Source: a virus
Length of the DNA: 64,000 nucleotides
IMG/VR virus record: IMGVR_UViG_3300044953_000102
Location: 50,944-114,943 of that record
Reading direction: 5' to 3' (one strand)
This document shows positions 1,514-19,816 of the stretch, in pieces. Each line of letters starts with the position of its first letter. Within the stretch, counting starts at the first letter, position 1. A model generated the notes under the pieces. The model was not told the DNA's origin, ran no database searches, and was given only the letters and a program-made list of their open reading frames with translations. Made by a program: the position numbers and the translations under genes.

Positions 1514-4261
1514 ATGCAAGTATACAACGCATTACAACTTAAAAAAGGAGCTAAGACAGAACAAAATAGATTGGGTAGTATTACTCAGCCGTTGCAGTTT
1601 TTACCTAAAAAAGATAAAACAGAAGAGTGGGCTGCTTGGAACTTAGACTGGTTAGAATGGCAAGGATTAAAACAAATCCGTAGAAATGCCAGAAGATTAA
1701 TGAAAAACTACAAACTTGCAAAAGGTATTATTGATAGAACTGATTATATAATTGAAGAGGATAATGAATATAGAGATGTTGTAGAACTATTAACAAAAGA
1801 AGATGTATCTGCACTAGAATTAAAGTTCTATCCTATTATTCCAAATGTTGTTAATGTTTTAGTAGCAGAATTTGCTAAAAGATCAACAAGATTAACCTAT
1901 AGAGCTGTTGATGATTTTTCATACAATGAAATGCTTGAACAAAAAAGAGCACAAGTAGAACAAACATTAATGGCTGATGCTGCTACAAAAATGTTAGCGG
2001 CTATGTTAGAACAAGGACTAGATCCTGGGTCAGAAGAAGCCCAACAACAACTTACACCAGATAATTTAAAGACACTACCTGAAATAGAGCAATTCTTTAA
2101 AAAGGATTATAGATCTATGGTAGAACAATGGGCTGAACATCAACATAAAGTAGATGTTGAAAGATTTAGAATGGATGAACTTGAAGAAAGAGCATTTAGA
2201 GATATGCTTATTACAGATAGAGAGTTCTGGCATTTTTATATGATGGAAGATGATTACCAAGTAGAACTCTGGAATCCGGTGCTTACATTCTATCACAAAT
2301 CTCCAGATATTAGATACATATCACAAGGTAACTGGGTAGGTAAAACAGATATGTTTACTGTATCAGATGTTATTGATAAGTTTGGACATGTACTTACTGA
2401 AGAACAACATAGAGCACTTGAATCAGTATATCCAATTAGATCTGCTGCTTATAACATTGGTGGTTTACAAAATGATGGAAGTTTTTATGATGGAACTAAA
2501 ACACATGACTGGAATGTCAATATGCCATCTTTAGCATACAGACAGTATACATCATTTATGGCAGGTAATATTTTTGATGGTTCAGATATTATTGCACAGA
2601 TACTTGCCGAAGGTGAAGATTACTATGATCAGGGTACAGCATACTTGTTAAGAGTAACAACAGCATACTGGAAATCTCAAAAGAAAATTGGTCACTTAAC
2701 TAAAATATCAGAAGAAGGTGAAGTAACTAATGAAATTATTTCTGAAGATTATAGAATTACAGATAAGCCAATTTATGATACTAGACTCTTTAAAAATAAA
2801 ACAAAAGATAATTTACTCTTTGGAGAACATATTGATTGGATTTGGATTAATGAGGTTTGGGGTGGAATTAAAATAGGACCAAATGTACCATCATTCTGGG
2901 GTATGAATAATCCAGGTGGATTTTCTCCTATATACATTGGAGTAAATAGAAATCATATTGGACCAGTTAAATTTCAATTTAAAGGAGAAGCAAATCTATA
3001 TGGATGTAAACTTCCGGTAGAAGGTTCTGTATTCTCAGATAGAAATACTAAGTCTACTGCACTTATTGATTTAATGAAGCCATATCAGATTGGATATAAT
3101 ATTGTAAATAACCAGATTGCAGATATCTTAGTAGATGAGCTTGGTACTGTAATCATGCTTGATCAAAACTCATTACCTAGACATTCATTAGGAGAAGATT
3201 GGGGTAAAGGTAATTTAGCTAAAGCATATGTTGCAATGAAGAACTTCCAGATGTTACCTTTGGATACTTCAATTACAAATACAGAAAATGCATTAAACTT
3301 CTCTCATTTCCAAAAACTTGACTTAGAACAGACTAATAGACTTATGTCAAGGATTAACCTTGCAAACTATTTTAAACAGCAAGCATATGAAGTTATAGGT
3401 GTAAATCCACAAAGAATGGGACAACAACTATCACAGACTACTGCTACTGGAGTAGAGCAAGCAATGCAAGCATCTTATGCTCAAACAGAAACTTACTTTA
3501 TTCAACACTGTGATTATTTAATGCCAAGAGTACATGAAATGAGAACTGACTTAGCTCAGTATTATCATTCTACAAAACCTTCAGCAAGATTAACATATGT
3601 AACATCTGCAGATGAAAAAGTAAACTTTGAAATTAATGGAACAGATCTTTTACTTAGAGATCTTAATATTGCTATAAGTACTAATGCAAATCACAGAGCT
3701 ATTCTAGAGCAGTTAAAAAAAATGGCTATTCAGAATAATACAACAGGGGCTTCTATATATGACTTAGGTAAAATTGTACAATCTGACTCTATTGCTTCTC
3801 TTAACAGTGTTCTTAAAGATTCTGAACAAAAACAACAGCAGATGAAACAACAGGAGATGCAGCAACAACAGCAAATGCAACAAGAACAACTTCAAAAACA
3901 ACAAGAGATTGAACAAATGAAGATTGATTCAACTGCTGCTGAGAAAGAAAAAGATAGACAAAGAGATATTCTAGTTGCAGAAATTAGAGCTGCTGGCTAC
4001 GGATCTATGGCAGATGTTGATCAAAATCAAATGTCTGACTATAGAGATGCTATGAAAGATATTCGTGAAACAGAACAATATCAAGAACAAACTGGACTTC
4101 AAAGAGAAAAAGAAGTAAATAGAATGACTATTGAAAATCAAAAAACTCAGTTAGAACGTGAGAAAATACAAGCACAGAAACAAATTGCAGATAGACAATT
4201 ACAAATTGCACAAGAAAATAAAAACAAATTTGATGTAAAACCTCCTAAAGAAAATAAGTAG
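1514..4261 (+). CDS. Portal protein (crAss-like)
   Basis: 915 aa between terL and scaffold/MCP. YPIIPNVVNVLVAEF motif, LIDLMKPYQIGYNIVNNQI, GVNPQRMG and a Q-rich coiled-coil C-terminus, as recalled for crAss-like portals. Confidence 0.88.
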   Translation: MQVYNALQLKKGAKTEQNRLGSITQPLQFLPKKDKTEEWAAWNLDWLEWQGLKQIRRNARRLMKNYKLAKGIIDRTDYIIEEDNEYRDVVELLTKEDVSALELKFYPIIPNVVNVLVAEFAKRSTRLTYRAVDDFSYNEMLEQKRAQVEQTLMADAATKMLAAMLEQGLDPGSEEAQQQLTPDNLKTLPEIEQFFKKDYRSMVEQWAEHQHKVDVERFRMDELEERAFRDMLITDREFWHFYMMEDDYQVELWNPVLTFYHKSPDIRYISQGNWVGKTDMFTVSDVIDKFGHVLTEEQHRALESVYPIRSAAYNIGGLQNDGSFYDGTKTHDWNVNMPSLAYRQYTSFMAGNIFDGSDIIAQILAEGEDYYDQGTAYLLRVTTAYWKSQKKIGHLTKISEEGEVTNEIISEDYRITDKPIYDTRLFKNKTKDNLLFGEHIDWIWINEVWGGIKIGPNVPSFWGMNNPGGFSPIYIGVNRNHIGPVKFQFKGEANLYGCKLPVEGSVFSDRNTKSTALIDLMKPYQIGYNIVNNQIADILVDELGTVIMLDQNSLPRHSLGEDWGKGNLAKAYVAMKNFQMLPLDTSITNTENALNFSHFQKLDLEQTNRLMSRINLANYFKQQAYEVIGVNPQRMGQQLSQTTATGVEQAMQASYAQTETYFIQHCDYLMPRVHEMRTDLAQYYHSTKPSARLTYVTSADEKVNFEINGTDLLLRDLNIAISTNANHRAILEQLKKMAIQNNTTGASIYDLGKIVQSDSIASLNSVLKDSEQKQQQMKQQEMQQQQQMQQEQLQKQQEIEQMKIDSTAAEKEKDRQRDILVAEIRAAGYGSMADVDQNQMSDYRDAMKDIRETEQYQEQTGLQREKEVNRMTIENQKTQLEREKIQAQKQIADRQLQIAQENKNKFDVKPPKENK

Positions 4262-4295: not shown

Positions 4296-4326
4296 TTTAA
4301 ATTTTTGAAGTTTATTTTATATATTG
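4296..4326 (+). promoter_or_regulatory. Putative late promoter TTTA-N20-TATATTG overlapped by a degenerate palindrome (4298-4316)
   Basis: Same architecture at five other intergenic sites; resembles the Bacteroidota -33 TTTG / -7 TAnnTTTG promoter. Confidence 0.55.
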
Positions 4327-4349
4327 ATATATAAACAAAAACCAACAGA

Positions 4350-5606
4350 ATGGAAACAACCAACACAAATCCTGAAAATCAGGTCCAAGATTCTACAACG
4401 GTAGAACAGGTAGATGTAAATATTGATGCCCTCTTTGGAATGCCTGGAGCAGAGAATGTAATGCTCCCTGCAGAAGAAGAAAAACCTAAATCAGTGTTTC
4501 ATAAAGAAACAGTTGATACATCGTTCTTTGACAACCCTACTGCTTCACCAGAAGAAAGACAACAAGAGCAAGAAAAGAAAATTGAAGTTCAAGAAACAAT
4601 TAATGAACTAGATAATCTAATTGCTCAAGAAGAAGAAGCCGGTAATAAAGGAAGACCAAAGGTTGATAAATCAGGTCTTGCAGAGTTAGCACAGAAAATG
4701 ATTGAGGATGGGTCTTTAGTACCTTTTGATGATGATAAACCATTAGAAGAATATACTACAAAAGATTTTCGTGAACTCTTTGAAGCAAATTTTCAAGAAA
4801 GAGAAAATCAAATAAGAAGAGATACTCCAAGAGAATTTTTTGAAGCATTACCAGAAGAACTTCAAGTTGCTGCTAAATATGTAGCTGATGGAGGACAAGA
4901 TTTGAAAGGTCTATTTAGAACTCTAGCTTATGTAGAGGAAATGAGACAACTTGATCCTGCTGATGAATATGATCAAGCAGAAATTGCAAGACAATATTTA
5001 CATGCTACAAACTTTGGTACTCCAGAAGAAATTGAACAAGAGATTCAAGACTGGAGAGATTTAAACCGACTTGAACAAAAAGCTAATCAGTTTAAACCAA
5101 AGTTGGATGCAATGCAAGAAGAAATTGTTGCAAGACAACTAGCAGAACAAGAGCATAGAAGAAATATGCAAGCAGAACAAGCTAAAGCATATCAAGAAAA
5201 TGTGTATAGTACACTTGCTGCAGGAACAATTGGTGGATTAAAACTAGATAAAAAAGTACAAGGTCTTTTATTTTCTGGATTAGTTCAACCTAATTATCCT
5301 TCTATCTCTGGTAAACCTACAAACTTACTAGGCCACCTTTTAGAGAAATATCAGTTTGTAGAACCAAGACATGACCTTATTGCTGAAGCACTTTGGTTAC
5401 TTGCAGATCCAAATGGATATAAGAATAGAGTAAGAGAACAAGGATCAAGACAAGCAGTAGAAAAAACTGTAAGACAATTGAAAACAGAGGAGTCTAGAAA
5501 GATTGCTTCTTCAACAAATACATTGTATGATGATGAACCAAGAAGAACACCTTCTAGATCTGAACCTAGAAAATTGTCAAAAAACAGTATGTTTAAAAGA
5601 TTTTAA
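4350..5606 (+). CDS. Acidic capsid assembly/scaffolding-like protein
   Basis: 418 aa, highly acidic, coiled-coil, basic C-terminal tip; immediately upstream of MCP, the conserved crAss position. Confidence 0.65.
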   Translation: METTNTNPENQVQDSTTVEQVDVNIDALFGMPGAENVMLPAEEEKPKSVFHKETVDTSFFDNPTASPEERQQEQEKKIEVQETINELDNLIAQEEEAGNKGRPKVDKSGLAELAQKMIEDGSLVPFDDDKPLEEYTTKDFRELFEANFQERENQIRRDTPREFFEALPEELQVAAKYVADGGQDLKGLFRTLAYVEEMRQLDPADEYDQAEIARQYLHATNFGTPEEIEQEIQDWRDLNRLEQKANQFKPKLDAMQEEIVARQLAEQEHRRNMQAEQAKAYQENVYSTLAAGTIGGLKLDKKVQGLLFSGLVQPNYPSISGKPTNLLGHLLEKYQFVEPRHDLIAEALWLLADPNGYKNRVREQGSRQAVEKTVRQLKTEESRKIASSTNTLYDDEPRRTPSRSEPRKLSKNSMFKRF

Positions 5607-5635: not shown

Positions 5636-7252
5636 ATGGCAACTCCAGTTTTAAACAATGGTATCTTTCTACGGGATACAGCCTACCAGGCAAGCTCACA
5701 CGTAGACTCCTACCACTTGGTTAACATGTTGAAGGATGCAGAACCAATGGACCTTGGTCCAGTAGACCTATGGGCTATGGCTCAGAAGGTGGAAATGCCC
5801 CTTTACCAAATGTCTAGCTTTGGTGGTAAGAATGTAATCATGGTGGATAACCACCGAGGAGAATATAGATGGCAGACTCCTGTATCTATTGATCTTCCAT
5901 ACATTGTTGAGGATATTGAACCTCAAGCAGCTTACAGAGGTACTGATGGATCTACCTTCCGTATCAAAATCAACAGACGTGAATTTGGACATGGTGATAT
6001 CATCACTTATCACAAATATAACGGAGTTGAGATGTACATCACTGACGAGGATATCCTTCCTGTAGGTGACGGTTATATCTATACTGTACAGTTGGTAAAC
6101 AACGATAACTACAAGTATCTAGATGCAAAATATCTTACTAATGGTACTAAAATCTTCCGTAAGGGTTCTGCCCGTGGGGAGTATGGTGAAAGATTCTCTG
6201 ACATCACAACAAGAACTGGTTTCCGTGAATTCTACAACTTTGTAGGAGGTGCTGAAGCTCACGTACATTATTCTATCTCTTCTCGTGCAGACTTGATGAT
6301 CAAAGGTGGAATGAATGCAGATGGTACAGTTCCTGTAACTGAGATCTGGAGAACTTTTGACAAAGGTATGGATCCTTCTATTTCTTCATTAGAAGATATG
6401 GTTAAAGTAATGGGTAAAGATAAAGTTAAACGTGCATTTGACAATGGTGACTTATCTAGAACATTCTTGACTCAAATGGAAGCTGCACACTTAAGTAAAG
6501 TTGCAAGTGACATTGAGACCTACTTAATGTGGGGACAAGGAGGTCGTGTACGTCAAGATGGACCAGATGACATTAGATTATCTGTGGGTCTTTGGAGACA
6601 GTTAGATAACTCATTTAAAAGAGTATATAACAAAAATAACTTTACACTTGATTTGTTCCGTGGAGAAATCTACAACTTCTTCAATGGTAAGGTTGAGTTC
6701 CAAGGTCCAGATCCAAAAAGATCTCTAGTAGTTCAAACTGGTATGGGTGGAATGAGAATGGTAAATGAAGCTATCAAAAGAGAAGCTGTTGCTTCTGGTC
6801 TATTGATTCAGGCTGCTGATATTGGTGCTATCACTGGTAAAGGTATGGACTTGAACTTTGGATTTGCTTATACTTCATATGTAATTCCATTCTTGGCAAA
6901 TGTTAAGTTTGTTCTTAACTCAGCATTTGACAATGTTCATACAAATGATATTGAGAACCCAATCATTGATGGTTTCCCATTATCTTCTTATAGCTTTATC
7001 ATCTTTGATATCACTGATAACACTAATGACAATATCTACTTATTGAAATTGTCTTGGGATAATCAATTGAAGTGGTGGTATCAAAATGGTACTATGGATT
7101 ACATGGGACGTACCCAAGGATTCCAGTCTTCTGGTCAATTCAACGGATACCGTGTAATGATGTCTCAAACAATGCCTGCAATTTGGGTAAAAGACCCAAC
7201 TAAGGTATTGAAGATTGTTATGAGAAACCCAGTAACCGGTGGTTCATTCTAA
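5636..7252 (+). CDS. Major capsid protein (HK97 fold, crAss-like)
   Basis: 538 aa; synteny; codon bias toward TTC/AAC/ATC/TAC/CGT suggests high expression; followed by a strong terminator; IETYLMWG and IWVKDPTK motifs. Confidence 0.88.
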   Translation: MATPVLNNGIFLRDTAYQASSHVDSYHLVNMLKDAEPMDLGPVDLWAMAQKVEMPLYQMSSFGGKNVIMVDNHRGEYRWQTPVSIDLPYIVEDIEPQAAYRGTDGSTFRIKINRREFGHGDIITYHKYNGVEMYITDEDILPVGDGYIYTVQLVNNDNYKYLDAKYLTNGTKIFRKGSARGEYGERFSDITTRTGFREFYNFVGGAEAHVHYSISSRADLMIKGGMNADGTVPVTEIWRTFDKGMDPSISSLEDMVKVMGKDKVKRAFDNGDLSRTFLTQMEAAHLSKVASDIETYLMWGQGGRVRQDGPDDIRLSVGLWRQLDNSFKRVYNKNNFTLDLFRGEIYNFFNGKVEFQGPDPKRSLVVQTGMGGMRMVNEAIKREAVASGLLIQAADIGAITGKGMDLNFGFAYTSYVIPFLANVKFVLNSAFDNVHTNDIENPIIDGFPLSSYSFIIFDITDNTNDNIYLLKLSWDNQLKWWYQNGTMDYMGRTQGFQSSGQFNGYRVMMSQTMPAIWVKDPTKVLKIVMRNPVTGGSF

Positions 7253-7301: not shown

Positions 7302-7345
7302 AAAAAGTAATTTAATAACCAACAAAAATAAAAACCAACAAAAAC

Positions 7346-12370: not shown

Positions 12371-13720
12371 ATGGCTTATTTTGATCATGCGTACAGAAAA
12401 GTCCTTTTGGCAACAAATGGAGTTTCTAACCTAACAGGTGTACAATTAGGTACTCCTACTGCACCTGGTGCAACAACTACTTACCAGCTTGCTCCTGGTA
12501 CAATTACATTTATCAACCCTGAAACATTTATTGTTGATGATGCTCCTGCATCTTGTTGTGATGTAATTCTTGCTGCTGGTTCAATCTATCCTAAAGATAA
12601 GATTGGTCCTTTCCACGGAGGTTATCAAGAGTCTAACAAAACTAAGACTATCAAACCTCAGTATGTAAGCAAGTATTGGTATGTTAATGCTAATGCACCT
12701 TCTAACTATATTATCCATGTTGGATATACTCCATGGACAGATGCAAATCCACCTTCAAGCAGCAACCCTGGTGAAACAGGAGGTACTTGTTGTAAAGAGT
12801 TCTTATGTGGTGAGACTTATTATCTACGTTTAGATGTTAAAGGTTCTCCTGCAATGAGATACTTAAATCACAATGCATATGAGACTCTTGAGGCTTATAC
12901 AGGATGTTGTGATCCTGCTGCAATTGCACCTACTCCAGTTGATCCACGTAAAGTATATCTTGCTTGGGCTAATCAACTTTTAGAGTCTCCAATTGTAAAT
13001 CCTTTTGCATATCCAGTAGTTACTTTCTCAAATGATGGTGGAGCAACTTGGACATACTACTATCCAAATAATGTTAATACTGCTACATTACCTGTAATCC
13101 CAGGTGTAACATATGCAAATTATGAGGATTGGACTGAGCAAGTTTATGCAAACACAATGTGTGCTGGTTTAGCTTTAACTGGTGCTTATGTTGATACTAA
13201 GTTTGGTAACTGTACATTCCAAGTTTCTGACTTCTATGAATTAGAGCCAGTAAGACTTTATGCTTCTGAAGTAGATTACACAGGTTCACCTTGTGAGTTT
13301 AACTCACTTTGTGTTGGTGTAGAATGTTATGGATTACAAGCAAATGGTACTGGAGAAACTGTAGCAAGAGATTACATCTTGTCAGAATCTTACAGACAAA
13401 GCTACTTTGCAACTGACTTCCGTATCAGAGAGATTACTCAAGGAGATGCAATTGTTGGATGTAATGGATTTATTGATAGAAACTCTCTATATGATAGAAT
13501 CTACTTACTACACAATGTACCTCGTTTCTACAATCCTACTGGAACATTTGACAATGATCAATATTTAGTAGAAGTTATTGTAGATCAAGGAGACATTTTA
13601 AATCCAAATGGTGTTTGGAATGCAATCTCTGATTGGTTAACAAACTGTTCAAGTTGTAATGCTGAACCTAATGTAACAGGTACCAACTGTCCTACTCCAG
13701 TGGTTCCATTACCAGCATAA
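12371..13720 (+). CDS. Abundant virion structural protein (auxiliary capsid/decoration-like)
   Basis: Own promoter and terminator, MCP-like codon bias, synteny with the crAss auxiliary capsid gene; Cys-rich. Confidence 0.55.
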   Translation: MAYFDHAYRKVLLATNGVSNLTGVQLGTPTAPGATTTYQLAPGTITFINPETFIVDDAPASCCDVILAAGSIYPKDKIGPFHGGYQESNKTKTIKPQYVSKYWYVNANAPSNYIIHVGYTPWTDANPPSSSNPGETGGTCCKEFLCGETYYLRLDVKGSPAMRYLNHNAYETLEAYTGCCDPAAIAPTPVDPRKVYLAWANQLLESPIVNPFAYPVVTFSNDGGATWTYYYPNNVNTATLPVIPGVTYANYEDWTEQVYANTMCAGLALTGAYVDTKFGNCTFQVSDFYELEPVRLYASEVDYTGSPCEFNSLCVGVECYGLQANGTGETVARDYILSESYRQSYFATDFRIREITQGDAIVGCNGFIDRNSLYDRIYLLHNVPRFYNPTGTFDNDQYLVEVIVDQGDILNPNGVWNAISDWLTNCSSCNAEPNVTGTNCPTPVVPLPA

Positions 13721-14331: not shown

Positions 14332-14349
14332 ACTCTAAAAACCAACAAA

Positions 14350-14493
14350 ATGAGTGCATGTCCAAATTGCGGAAAAAAACTGTCTTGTGGATGTCAAAAG
14401 AAAAAAGCATCTAATGGACAAACTGTATGTAATGACTGTAAAGTACAGTATGAGCAGCAGTTACAACAACAAATGAAAAAATTTACTAAATAA
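14350..14493 (+). CDS. 47-aa Cys-rich (zinc-ribbon-like) protein
   Basis: Not in ORF track. MSACPNCGKKLSCGCQKKKASNGQTVCNDCKVQYEQQLQQQMKKFTK; fills the gap, TAATG-coupled to the next gene, AAACCAACAAA leader. Confidence 0.75.
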   Translation: MSACPNCGKKLSCGCQKKKASNGQTVCNDCKVQYEQQLQQQMKKFTK

Positions 14494-16640
14494 TGTGTAC
14501 AATTGTTCCAGGTTCCCTTACCGTAAGAGTCTCAGAATGTGACCCAGATACAGGATTATATTCAATATCAGGAGAAGTTGATGTTATCAACCCTCCTGGA
14601 CAAATGAATTCTGGAACAACAGGTTATGCAGTATTTGGTACTACATGTAGTGGAGGGGGATCAAGTCCAGAAGTTGTTTCTGGATTGTTTCCAGATCTTC
14701 CAGTTGTAACAGTAAGTTATACAATTATTAATTTAATTGCTAATGGTGTTAATGGTTGTATACTTTCTGTAGAATTTTATGATAATACTTTTCCAACAAA
14801 TAATTTAGATCCTGTAGTTGTTTGTTCTGCTGAATTAGAATTTAATGCACCAGAGCCATGTTTTACAGAGTTTCTTTATTATGAGTTTACAAACTGTTGT
14901 AATCCAGATGAAGTAATATCATTTAATCCAGGACAAGATCCTTTTGTTACAATTACTCCAGGAACATATTTATATTCTGGTCCAGCATATCAAGGTTTAT
15001 TACCTAATACATGCTATACTATATCAGAGGCATTTACAATAGATCCTGCATTTTTTACTAATCTCCCAAATGTACCATTAAACATTCCAGCAAATTACAC
15101 AGAAGCTGTTGATTGTAATGATACACTTGTTTGTCCAGGATGTGATGTAAAATGTTATAGACTTTTTTCTTGTGCAGGTACAGCATTACCTTTTAATACA
15201 CATACAAATCTTTCTGCATACTTAGGTCAGTTTATAGAAATAAGTTTGGTTGGTCAAACTTCAATTGGTTGTTTTTATGTACAAGAAGTTGATCCTTTTA
15301 CTTGTTCTGATGCTGTTGAGATAGAAGTTCTTGGTACAGGTTGTAATTGTGAATGCTTATGCTATACAATATTAGGAACTGTTAAAAAATTACAATACTT
15401 ATCTTGTGATAATCAAATAATAAAAGATCCTACTGTAAGTCAATTTTGTTCAAGAATATATCCTATAGTTTCTGGCACACCTGGTGAATATCAAATAAAT
15501 CAAGGTTTACCGTGTGTAGATGGTGAATGTCCTGAAGTTTGTTATTTACTAACTAATTGTCAAACCGGTGCTACAATTACTACACAAAATAATCTGTCTC
15601 AGTATTATTTAAGTAATCAGGTAGTTGTAATAGTTGGAGAAGAAGGATGTTGGGAAATTGAAATTGCTGAAGCTTGTGATTGTCCACAAGAAGTTATAGT
15701 TGCACAATTCTATGATGATTGTCCATCATGTATTCCACCGATTGCATATAAGTTAATAAACTGTACAACACAACAAGTACAATTTTATACAACTACAGAT
15801 TTATCTGCCTATGTAGGCAAAAGTGTAGAAATAGATTGTGGTTGTTATTTTGTAGAGCAAATAAATATTATACCCCCAACAGATACACCTATTGTAGTTG
15901 AATTTGTTTTTGATGATTGTATTGCTTGTAAAAAAGTTTATTACAGATTACAAGATTGTTTTGATCAAACTAATGTAATTTATACAACAACTGATTTAAG
16001 TTTATACCTTAATGAAGTAATTAAAATAAAAGGTTGCGATAACTGTTGGCAAGTAACAGAAACAAGAACTTTTACCACATTAGAAAATGTAGAGGTAGTA
16101 CAGGATTTTCTAACCTGTGAAGATTGTTATGTAGATGCTCCATGTATCTGTACTAAGATAACTAATCTTACTCTTACAACACAAACTATTAGTTATATAG
16201 ACTGTGAAAATAATGAAGTAGATCTAACACTGTTAGTAAATGAAACATCAGATAAGATATGTGCTAAAAGATGGATTCTTCCAGATCTACCTGCTGGTCA
16301 ATTCCTTTACCAAGAAACATTTGGAGAATGTCAACAAGGAGTGTGTCCACAGCCAGTATTTAAAAATAATAGAACAGTACGTCCAGGATATAATACACCA
16401 ATTTGTACACCGGCAAAATATGATGAAATAACTTGCAAGTTTGCAGACATCTTATATAAGATTGCTCTTGAGAAAAGATATGGTATTACAAATTGTTGTC
16501 CTGAAGATGATGACAAGTGGTTGATTAAAAAAGAACTTATAGATCTTCAAGCTTTAAAAGATCCAAATTATGATTGTAAAGAATGTACGTGTGGTTGCAA
16601 TCCAGTAAATGCATGCTCTACTTGCAATTGTAAAAATTAA
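14493..16640 (+). CDS. Cys-rich repeat tail/virion protein
   Basis: 715 aa with ~65-70-aa repeats (YxLxxC...TTTDLSxY..V.I..C.C[WY]xV) and a helical C-terminal domain (KFADILY..KRYGI..CC). Confidence 0.6.
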   Translation: MCTIVPGSLTVRVSECDPDTGLYSISGEVDVINPPGQMNSGTTGYAVFGTTCSGGGSSPEVVSGLFPDLPVVTVSYTIINLIANGVNGCILSVEFYDNTFPTNNLDPVVVCSAELEFNAPEPCFTEFLYYEFTNCCNPDEVISFNPGQDPFVTITPGTYLYSGPAYQGLLPNTCYTISEAFTIDPAFFTNLPNVPLNIPANYTEAVDCNDTLVCPGCDVKCYRLFSCAGTALPFNTHTNLSAYLGQFIEISLVGQTSIGCFYVQEVDPFTCSDAVEIEVLGTGCNCECLCYTILGTVKKLQYLSCDNQIIKDPTVSQFCSRIYPIVSGTPGEYQINQGLPCVDGECPEVCYLLTNCQTGATITTQNNLSQYYLSNQVVVIVGEEGCWEIEIAEACDCPQEVIVAQFYDDCPSCIPPIAYKLINCTTQQVQFYTTTDLSAYVGKSVEIDCGCYFVEQINIIPPTDTPIVVEFVFDDCIACKKVYYRLQDCFDQTNVIYTTTDLSLYLNEVIKIKGCDNCWQVTETRTFTTLENVEVVQDFLTCEDCYVDAPCICTKITNLTLTTQTISYIDCENNEVDLTLLVNETSDKICAKRWILPDLPAGQFLYQETFGECQQGVCPQPVFKNNRTVRPGYNTPICTPAKYDEITCKFADILYKIALEKRYGITNCCPEDDDKWLIKKELIDLQALKDPNYDCKECTCGCNPVNACSTCNCKN

Positions 16641-16651
16641 TTTGTATATTA
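16621..16651 (+). promoter_or_regulatory. Putative late promoter CTTG-N20-TATATTA
   Basis: Recurring architecture upstream of 16667. Confidence 0.5.
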
Positions 16652-18409: not shown

Positions 18410-19711
18410 ATGGCAACTAATAACTGTGGAAATTCAAATTGTGGATGCACAAATACATATACTGTAACGGCACCATGTCCTCCTTCATGCCCTGAAGTAT
18501 TTAATTCATCTTGTATTGTTTACACAGGTACTGATATTTTATGTAATCAAGATACTGTAATTAGCAGATATGATTATCTTGATACTATTATTACTAAACT
18601 AGTAAACTACATCTGTAGCGTTCAAGCTCCAGTAACAGTTGTAGTAGGATCTACTTATGTTGATGTATCTCAAAATACAGTAGGTAATACAACTACATAT
18701 ACTGTATCTGTAGATATTCCTGCACTTCAAGCATATTTTGATATAATTATTTCTCAAACAATTGCAGCTTCAATTTTTGAAGGGCCTGGTATTGATGTAA
18801 GTGTTAATCCAATTACAAATGCTGTAACTATTTCTCATGAAGATACATCAACTGTAGCAAACTTATCAAGCAGTAATTCAGGTAATACTTTTATTCAAGA
18901 TATCTTCTTTACATTTGACACCTTTGGACATGTTACTGGTGCATCAGTTGTTCCTAGTTCTGTAACTCCTCCAAATGATTTTGATAGAGCTCAGATTAAT
19001 CCTGATTTAGGATTTACATGGGGACCTAATAATGATCCAACTAATATTCAAATTGCTGATGCTCCTGGAGATACATTAAACTTTGTGGCTGGAACAGGTA
19101 TTACACTTAATGCAAGTACTGTACCTACTACTGACGCAATTAGAATTACTAACTCTGATCCAGGTTCTGCAGTTACACTTACTTCAGCCGGTGGTACAGA
19201 AACTTTAGTAAATAATGGTACAGGACCTGCTTTAGCAACAAAAGGACTTACTGCAGGAACAGGTATTTCATTAACTGGTACAGCAACTGCAATTACGTTG
19301 ACTAATACAGATCCAGGATCTGCTGTTACTTTAACAGATGCTGGTACTACTGCACATGAATCATTAGTAAATAATGGGGTTGGTCCAGCTCTAGCTACTA
19401 AAGGATTAAAAGCAGGTACTGGAATTTCATTAAGTGCTACTGGTACAGATATTACTATTACTAATACCATTACTTCAGTTGTTCAAAAATACACAACAAC
19501 AACTTTTCTTCCGGGAGCAGGTAGTGTTACTATCACACATAACTTAAACACACTAGATATTGTTGTTGCTGTCTCTCAAGATGGAGTTCCTCCATTAAAT
19601 GGTTTAGTACCTGGTGTTGACTACACTTACACCATTACAAGTTTAAATACAATAAATGTTAATGATGCAGCATTTGGTGGTGGCTCTATTAGAGTTACTG
19701 TTATAGGATAA
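18410..19711 (+). CDS. Tail/head fibre protein with tandem repeats
   Basis: Shares the N-terminal SSC[IV]x[YW]xG..C domain with 16667; TFDTFGHVT, AGTGI repeats and C-terminal TITHNLNT motif. Confidence 0.6.
   Translation: MATNNCGNSNCGCTNTYTVTAPCPPSCPEVFNSSCIVYTGTDILCNQDTVISRYDYLDTIITKLVNYICSVQAPVTVVVGSTYVDVSQNTVGNTTTYTVSVDIPALQAYFDIIISQTIAASIFEGPGIDVSVNPITNAVTISHEDTSTVANLSSSNSGNTFIQDIFFTFDTFGHVTGASVVPSSVTPPNDFDRAQINPDLGFTWGPNNDPTNIQIADAPGDTLNFVAGTGITLNASTVPTTDAIRITNSDPGSAVTLTSAGGTETLVNNGTGPALATKGLTAGTGISLTGTATAITLTNTDPGSAVTLTDAGTTAHESLVNNGVGPALATKGLKAGTGISLSATGTDITITNTITSVVQKYTTTTFLPGAGSVTITHNLNTLDIVVAVSQDGVPPLNGLVPGVDYTYTITSLNTINVNDAAFGGGSIRVTVIG
19148..19460 (+). repeat. Two tandem ~153-nt (51-53 aa) coding repeats in fibre gene
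   Basis: TN[ST]DPGSAVTLT.AG..E[TS]LVNNG.GPALATKGL.AGTGISL starts at 19148 and 19301. Confidence 0.85.
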
Positions 19712-19779
19712 GGTTGCAGGTTTGTTGGTTTCTGTAACAAACAGACAAGCCCTCACACTCGTGGGGGTTTTGTTTTATT
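19712..19779 (+). ncRNA. Candidate 3'-UTR-derived small RNA (hairpin with UUUGUUGGUU loop plus terminator)
   Basis: Stem 19713-19720/19731-19738; loop is the reverse complement of the AACCAACAAA boxes before three start codons. Function inferred. Confidence 0.4.
19745..19779 (+). terminator. Rho-independent terminator after fibre operon
   Basis: GCCCTCAC-ACTC-GTGGGGGT stem followed by TTTGTTTT. Confidence 0.8.
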
Positions 19780-19785
19780 AGTATA

Positions 19786-19816
19786 TTTGTTAAAGTCATT
19801 AATTTTTAGTATATTA
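19786..19816 (+). promoter_or_regulatory. Putative promoter TTTG-N20-TATATTA (a canonical TATATTTG also lies at 19782-19789)
   Basis: Recurring architecture; Bacteroidota -7 consensus TAnnTTTG. Confidence 0.55.

Follow-up and report, generated by a model that had tools for sequence, protein, structure and literature searches.

A conserved 3′-UTR hairpin of uncultivated crAss-like phages with a loop complementary to boxes at virion-gene starts

Directly downstream of a variable fibre-type gene, an uncultivated crAss-like phage carries a small hairpin joined to an intrinsic terminator, which comparison with relatives identifies as a conserved structured RNA element of the + strand. The hairpin presents an invariant loop, and short boxes complementary to this loop sit at the start codons of a small set of virion genes. 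The reading preferred here, with somewhat better than even confidence, is that translation of the boxed genes is controlled, probably by repression, through pairing of their leaders with the 3′-UTR loop. The element occurs in the genomes of well over 100 uncultivated phages from fresh and estuarine water.

Genome setting and the hairpin block

The window analysed here covers the final 64 kb of an IMG/VR virus record, which measures 114.9 kb, is 96% complete and has a G+C content of 32%. It represents the DNA of a phage found in lake, river and estuary metagenomes, and its gene layout is crAss-like, with a portal gene at 1514–4261, an MCP gene at 5636–7252 and giant genes farther downstream. 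DNA and protein searches of the INPHARED phages return no close cultured relative, and no host can be named from them; the best MCP match there, Leptolyngbya phage Lbo-JY46, reaches 28% identity, while neither the region from the fibre gene to the 193-aa gene nor the 193-aa protein itself has an INPHARED match. Across the whole genome, an SD-like tetramer (GGAG, GAGG or AGGA, at −20 to −4) occurs in only 4 of the 105 leaders, the leaders are A-rich, and TAnnTTTG motifs precede several genes. Such SD-poor, A-rich leaders point to SD-independent initiation, as in Bacteroidota, and SD-less leaders combined with TAnnTTTG motifs fit a Bacteroidota-type host.

The hairpin stem begins at 19713, past the TAA stop codon of the fibre-type gene (19709–19711), and consists of 8 bp, two of them G·U, closing the 10-nt loop TTTGTTGGTT at 19721–19730. 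Farther on, the terminator stem (19747–19770) contains 10 pairs, five of them G–C, and continues into the tail TGTTTTATTA, thus presenting on the transcribed strand the G+C-rich stem-loop and U run of an intrinsic terminator. The minimum-free-energy fold consists of exactly the hairpin and terminator described by the sequence-only reading (−25.1 kcal/mol, z = −3.5), and the positions it assigned to hairpin, terminator and boxes are all correct when checked against sequence and fold (Table 1).

Table 1. Positions of the hairpin block, the leader boxes and the promoter-like motifs (window coordinates unless marked genome)
Feature	Position	Strand	Sequence or detail
Leader box of 418-aa scaffold-position gene	4339..4349	+	AAACCAACAGA, directly before ATG 4350
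Second box of 418-aa scaffold-position gene	4358..4366	+	AACCAACAC, codons 3–6 (AACCAACA from 4358)
Distal box in 340-aa post-MCP gene leader	7317..7326	+	AACCAACAAA
Proximal box of 340-aa post-MCP gene	7332..7342	+	AAACCAACAAA, 3 nt before ATG 7346
Box of 47-aa Zn-ribbon ORF	14339..14349	+	AAACCAACAAA, directly before ATG 14350
Hairpin	19713..19738	+	5′ arm GTTGCAGG 19713–19720, loop, 3′ arm TCTGTAAC 19731–19738
Loop / proposed seed	19721..19731	+	UUUGUUGGUU(U); core UUGUUGGUU, minimal seed GUUGGUU
Spacer between hairpin and terminator	19739..19746	+	single-stranded, A/C-rich AAACAGAC; most relatives AACAA(C)
Intrinsic terminator	19747..19779	+	G+C-rich stem-loop, then T run
Promoter-like block of 193-aa gene (ATG 19819)	19782..19816	+	TATATTTG (TAnnTTTG) 19782–19789; GTATATTA 19809–19816
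Promoter-like motif sites	window 19782–19816, 16644–16651, 4311–4325; genome 41781, 44808, 33869(−)		

Because the hairpin stands 5–15 kb from its targets on the same strand, it falls outside the definition of a cis-encoded antisense RNA; placed directly downstream of a coding sequence and sharing the intrinsic terminator of that sequence, it has the location of a 3′-UTR-derived sRNA. Searches of Rfam 15, including the phage C4 antisense RNA and Bacteroidota sRNAs, give best hits of 16–26 bits against gathering scores of 47–114, and these sub-threshold hits, seen at a permissive E-value, are due largely to the terminator. Literature searches for sRNAs of crAss-like phages and for sRNAs encoded by phages return nothing on the hairpin element, and those with the loop/box motif string return only primer noise. 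Logan contigs of relatives from riverine metatranscriptomes cover 19184–19767 thinly, and such contigs cannot show RNA ends. Within a 17.5-kb stretch, the best-covered genes of close relatives in four riverine metatranscriptome assemblies are the MCP gene and the 449-aa gene (12371–13720). Contigs cannot rank expression, so that this coverage is no more than a hint at the two genes being transcribed most strongly.

On its two sides, the hairpin block adjoins regions of different character. The upstream 433-aa gene (18410–19711) keeps its first ~250 residues in relatives, its C-terminal part being replaced, and in contigs of relatives from RNA libraries position 18616 is joined to 19699, the stretch between being left out. 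This region is a putative cassette-like receptor-binding region with the hairpin block as its right boundary; the conserved N-terminus and variable C-terminus are consistent with the identity of the gene as a fibre, which no family hit confirms. On the downstream side, hairpin, terminator and the promoter-like block of the 193-aa gene are conserved as a single unit in 80 relatives. The underlying promoter-like motif, TTTATTT-N(1–3)-GTATATTA, sometimes with TAnnTTTG ahead, recurs 10–35 nt before several starts; relatives keep it ahead of the scaffold-position gene and likewise ahead of the 193-aa gene, where it ends just 2 nt from the ATG. It may be a middle or late promoter of the phage group.

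The 80 relatives are contigs located through homologues of the downstream 193-aa gene at 60–85% amino-acid identity; all of them carry the hairpin, the terminator and the promoter-like block, and the upstream gene differs among them. In total, over 100 related IMG/VR phage contigs contain hairpin plus terminator, with a single copy in each genome, and one exact 19-nt version of the hairpin is present as a single copy in each of 83 IMG/VR contigs. A covariance model comprising hairpin plus terminator (R1) likewise matches exactly one + strand copy per contig, recovering 57 of 65 loci (45–91 bits) and 13 of 20 more distant loci, and yields 78 hits on a set of 100. Bulged stems such as AGTCCACG...CGTGACT, which a simple hairpin-finder script misses, are detected by R1.

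Base pairing in the stem is maintained through extensive sequence change. Specifically, stem cells are paired at ~92–94% in relatives (91.7% over 72 distinct sequences), against 36–54% when the partner columns are slid (36–53% in the set of 72), and all seven aligned stem pairs have changed on both sides among the 72 distinct sequences, with which a hand-made alignment agrees. None of 500 shuffles reaches the covariation observed in this set. Distant clades possess wholly different stems, namely GTTGCAG/CTGTAAC, GTCGCAG/CTGTGGC, GTCATGG/CTATGAC, GTCCACG/CGTGAC, GCTGTGA/TCGCAGC, GTTACG/CGTAAC, GATTGCG/CGTAGTC and ATCAGG/CCTGAT. The loop stays fixed: nine columns, U-U-G-U-U-G-G-U-U, are invariant in 70–72 of the 72 distinct homologues (core UUGUUGGUU). 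The terminator helix is 98–99.6% paired in relatives, with many compensatory changes.

Additionally, the stem starts at a median of 6 nt past the stop codon of an ORF that encodes 100 aa or more, the distance being 0–15 nt in 57 of 72 contexts, so that the hairpin is a 3′-UTR element with no room for a conserved promoter of its own. G·U pairs are frequent in the stem and would become A·C on the other strand; the helix is therefore valid only on + strand RNA, which argues for an RNA-level element and against a double-stranded DNA site or cruciform. The spacer, (U)AACAA(C), is single-stranded and conserved in most clades, being absent from distant clades and from the L231/L233 clade. According to RNAalifold, the spacer at 19739–19746 could pair with the loop UUGUU in an alternative, seed-masking conformer. 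A consensus hairpin from the same program, joining the loop UUGUUG to a downstream (G)ACAA, was rejected, as it shows one-sided changes only and is missing in distant clades, and an H-type pseudoknot is ruled out by the length of the loop.

Boxes at the starts of virion genes

Three genes of the structural module carry boxes at their starts in this genome, namely the scaffold-position gene, the post-MCP gene and the Zn-ribbon ORF (Table 1), and the MCP leader carries none. The 10-mer of the distal post-MCP box recurs inside the proximal one (7333–7342) and inside the Zn-ribbon box (14340–14349). Tandem boxes in the post-MCP leader are common among relatives, and the second box of the scaffold-position gene is also found in some close relatives.

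Placement, and not abundance, distinguishes the motif. Within the window, AACCAACA occurs 7 times against 3.6 expected, a count that by itself is not significant. A genome-wide comparison of leaders with the remaining sequence, a check that the sequence-only reading had suggested, shows that 8 of the 11 copies outside the hairpin in the whole 114.9-kb genome lie between −20 and +40 of a start codon, a zone making up 2.8% of positions (binomial 6e-11). Moreover, no other non-homopolymeric 8-mer ranks above AACCAACA near start codons, and the 55 further words made of its letters in another order fall far below it.

Three more boxed genes lie outside the window, with genome starts at 14548(−), 44248 and 47596. 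The gene at genome 47596–47898 encodes an acidic protein of ~100 aa and holds its box within codons 2–5 (M-E-N-Q-Q, ATGGAAAACCAACAA), a position shared with two complete relatives (G006, 61982(−); G007, 40985); it could be a fourth conserved target, or the motif could merely reflect a conserved N-terminal peptide. The stop codon of the Zn-ribbon ORF (CxxC...CxxC; 14350–14495) overlaps the ATG of the 715-aa gene at 14493 as TAATG. This arrangement suggests that the 715-aa tail-module gene is translationally coupled to the boxed Zn-ribbon micro-ORF, and through this overlap control exerted at the Zn-ribbon box could extend to the tail module.

The same gene specificity holds among relatives. The survey covered 21-kb loci around the 449-aa gene, gathered in three successive searches, and scored AACCAA[CT] within −45 to +12 of the start in distinct leaders. 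For the scaffold-position gene the motif is present in 79 of 86 leaders, for the post-MCP gene in 98 of 105 and for the Zn-ribbon ORF in 87 of 97; control leaders have it in 2 of 89 cases for the MCP, 0 of 99 for the 180-aa gene and 1 of 70 for the 193-aa gene. The box 11-mer usually ends 0–3 nt before the ATG, with AACCAAC as its most conserved core. Complementarity between a conserved seed, here in the loop, and the initiation regions of several mRNAs is characteristic of 3′-UTR-derived sRNAs. Boxed leaders are predicted to be unstructured, and the computed energy of the loop:box duplex is ~−11 kcal/mol. Ranking all leaders by RNAduplex against the loop plus its stem flanks gave no discrimination, because the stem nucleotides found spurious partners.

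Complementarity and co-variation of loop and boxes

Loop and box are conserved independently of each other, and their 9-nt cores are exact complements. Where the box does vary, the changes tend to preserve pairing: position C8 is replaced by T in 27 cases, against 9 A and 1 G, and T gives a G·U pair with the loop G. The scaffold-gene box variant AAGACCAAC likewise pairs with the loop through G·U. One lineage, L231, provides the single instance of compensatory change between loop and box, combining the loop UUUUAUUGGUUUUU (seed G to A) with the scaffold-gene and Zn-ribbon boxes AAAACCAAUAAAA and AAAACCAAUAA (C to U). Its sister L222 has the loop G opposite a box U, representing the G·U intermediate, and the predicted pairs of the two lineages trace the classical path from G–C through G·U to A–U. 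Covariation between loop and box is limited to one lineage because both cores are so highly conserved.

Joint absence provides a second line of evidence, from a single sampled lineage. The near-complete genomes G001 and G002 contain no such hairpin anywhere, and the equivalent intergenic gap in G001 measures 20 nt. Only 1 of 16 AACCAAC copies in hairpin-less G001 lies near a start, versus 4 of 16 in G006, 3 of 16 in G007 and 8 of 19 in the present genome, which all bear the hairpin and have these copies at the orthologous genes. G001/G002 and L210 occupy long basal branches of the MCP tree, so that loss is indistinguishable from primary absence. The post-Zn-ribbon module of G001 (L335–L341, ~26.8–31.7 kb, gene-strand) is far more compact, with genes of 476, 183, 189 and 219 aa and gaps of at most 20 nt, and it contains no detectable homologue of the 193-aa gene.

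Several lineages depart from the full complementarity. In L210 and G010 the loop has changed to UUGGUUGG and most boxes are still AACCAACAA, leaving 6–8 bp. The L233/L246/L247 clade has boxes AAAACCAAA(U/A) that keep only ~8 bp, which defines the minimal seed as GUUGGUU with AACCAAC. An apparent occurrence of boxes without the hairpin in G008–G011 proved to be an artefact of R1 in both genomes inspected (G009 and G010): the model missed the ATCAGG/CCTGAT clade because it included the terminator, and direct inspection reveals the hairpin in both, with a new stem and an atypical terminator. The portion of G008 looked at shows no hairpin.

Collectively, these results strongly support the central proposal of the sequence-only reading, that the loop is antisense to the starts of the scaffold-position, post-MCP and Zn-finger genes, through the covarying stem, the invariant loop, the gene-specific boxes, the L231 change and the G001/G002 genomes. 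The covariance model built from relatives, which that reading had also called for, returns a covarying stem; the loop is conserved among relatives with boxes, an outcome that favours the proposal.

Proposed mechanism, alternatives and known systems

According to the favoured mechanism, the hairpin in the 3′ UTR of the last variable fibre-type gene would be transcribed on the + strand and end at its own intrinsic terminator, with the stem displaying the invariant loop 5′-UUGUUGGUU-3′ (minimal seed GUUGGUU). This loop would base-pair with AACCAAC(A) boxes at the Shine-Dalgarno-equivalent position, 0–3 nt before the ATG. In the structural module it would target the scaffold-position and post-MCP genes as well as the Zn-ribbon ORF, to which the 715-aa gene is coupled; a few genes outside the window are also boxed. 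Most likely, pairing over the ribosome landing site would lower translation of the boxed genes, and the effect would grow late in infection as fibre-operon transcripts, or a nuclease-resistant 3′ fragment of hairpin plus terminator, accumulate. Repression is favoured because ribosomes would have to land on sequence covered by a duplex that ends at −1 to −3. The element may work after being processed into a fragment or as part of the mRNA; from sequence we infer pairing in vivo, repression, and action either in trans as a processed small RNA or within and between long mRNAs. Among the points against pairing is its energetics: an A/U-rich duplex of 8–11 bp formed from a hairpin loop of 10–11 nt is modest in energy and topologically strained.

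The same pairing with the opposite outcome is an unlikely alternative. Here the duplex would activate or protect, raising or co-ordinating expression of the boxed genes, either by shielding the A-rich leader from endonuclease or by forming a long-range 5′–3′ mRNA tether within the structural transcript. All of the comparative evidence for pairing applies equally to this outcome, which also suits an element that lacks a promoter of its own, shares the strand and probably the transcripts of its targets, and has its boxes kept in structural genes required in quantity. However, a duplex positioned 0–3 nt before the ATG covers the 30S landing site, an arrangement that usually blocks initiation in characterised bacterial systems, and the MCP, the most abundant protein, has no box.

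Exact complementarity between two conserved 9-nt cores is very unlikely to arise by chance, and it is accordingly quite improbable that loop and box have separate functions, the hairpin as a protein-binding or mRNA-stabilising structure and the boxes as an SD-independent enhancer or the binding site of a translational regulator. With SD motifs in so few leaders, A/C-rich enhancers are plausible, and G010 and L210 tolerate loop changes without changes in the boxes; yet the L231 change, the G·U-compatible bias and the G001/G002 co-absence all require a link between the two elements, and a general enhancer would be expected on the MCP gene too. A protein that binds double-stranded AAACCAACAAA in either orientation, near starts and upstream of the 193-aa gene promoter, would account for a hairpin ~50–90 nt upstream of the conserved promoter-like block. 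Such a DNA-level motif is very improbable, because the stem covaries and its G·U pairs are A·C on the other strand, indicating selection on a single-stranded + strand molecule; the box position, moreover, is fixed relative to the ATG and not to promoters, and C to T opposite the loop G fits RNA wobble. Similarly far-fetched is a loop that targets host AACCAAC leaders for shut-off or imitates a host RNA, with the phage boxes secondary; co-conservation with three phage leaders and joint absence need no host target for their explanation. Each of these last three readings is less likely than loop–box pairing.

A more far-reaching form of the loop–box pairing, which we regard as doubtful, is a private translation code, in which a box at the SD position of selected virion genes and one phage RNA loop carrying its complement would gate ribosome loading. 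In a non-SD host, the phage RNA would then serve as a timed repressor or as a ribosome-recruiting adaptor.

As hairpin and boxes are retained jointly in relatives, the loop/box pair is probably a new phage RNA switch for translation. To our knowledge, hardly any conserved regulatory RNA has been described from crAss-like phages or from phages of SD-less hosts, and the architecture found here is clear, comprising a covarying stem, an invariant loop and a small, defined regulon of virion-gene leaders. If confirmed, the switch would show how such phages set post-transcriptionally how much of their scaffold, capsid-associated and tail proteins they make, or when, and it would supply a compact, naturally orthogonal seed/box pair for the study or engineering of translation in non-SD organisms. 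The L231 lineage represents a compensatory mutation already made by nature.

Among known systems, the c4 antisense RNA of phages P1 and P7, which controls icd/ant, is, like the hairpin element, a phage-encoded structured RNA. It measures ~70–80 nt, carries loops complementary to the ribosome-binding region of its target, belongs to the same strand and transcription units, and blocks translation. In contrast to the hairpin element, c4 lies upstream of its targets, is cut from the transcript, serves lysogenic immunity and applies two loops to two sites in one mRNA; the hairpin element has a single loop, resides in a 3′ UTR by a terminator, addresses at least three dispersed virion-gene leaders and belongs to a lytic-type crAss-like genome.

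Enterobacterial 3′-UTR sRNAs of the CpxQ, SroC and DapZ type share with the element the location directly past a stop codon, the use of the parental intrinsic terminator and a short conserved seed directed against the translation-initiation regions of several mRNAs. They differ in being Hfq-dependent and chromosomal, in having usually single-stranded seeds and in operating in SD-using hosts, whereas the element, known from its sequence, has a hairpin-loop seed, faces SD-less leaders and is encoded by a phage genome. GibS-type sRNAs of Bacteroides thetaiotaomicron are Hfq-independent and direct a conserved seed against the initiation regions of a few mRNAs in an SD-poor organism; unlike the hairpin element, they are host-encoded and stand-alone with promoters of their own, and they have no sequence or Rfam relationship to it. 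The 3′ cap-independent translation elements of plant RNA viruses also have a 3′-UTR loop complementary to a 5′ leader, and their long-range 3′–5′ kissing links the mRNA ends and controls translation, but they are eukaryotic, confined to a single mRNA, activating and bound by initiation factors.

Taken together, these analogies suggest that the element would act most like P1/P7 c4 and the 3′-UTR-derived sRNAs. By its predicted structure and its sequence it is outside the described families and represents a candidate for a new RNA family, found with its defined regulon in a large group of uncultivated phages.
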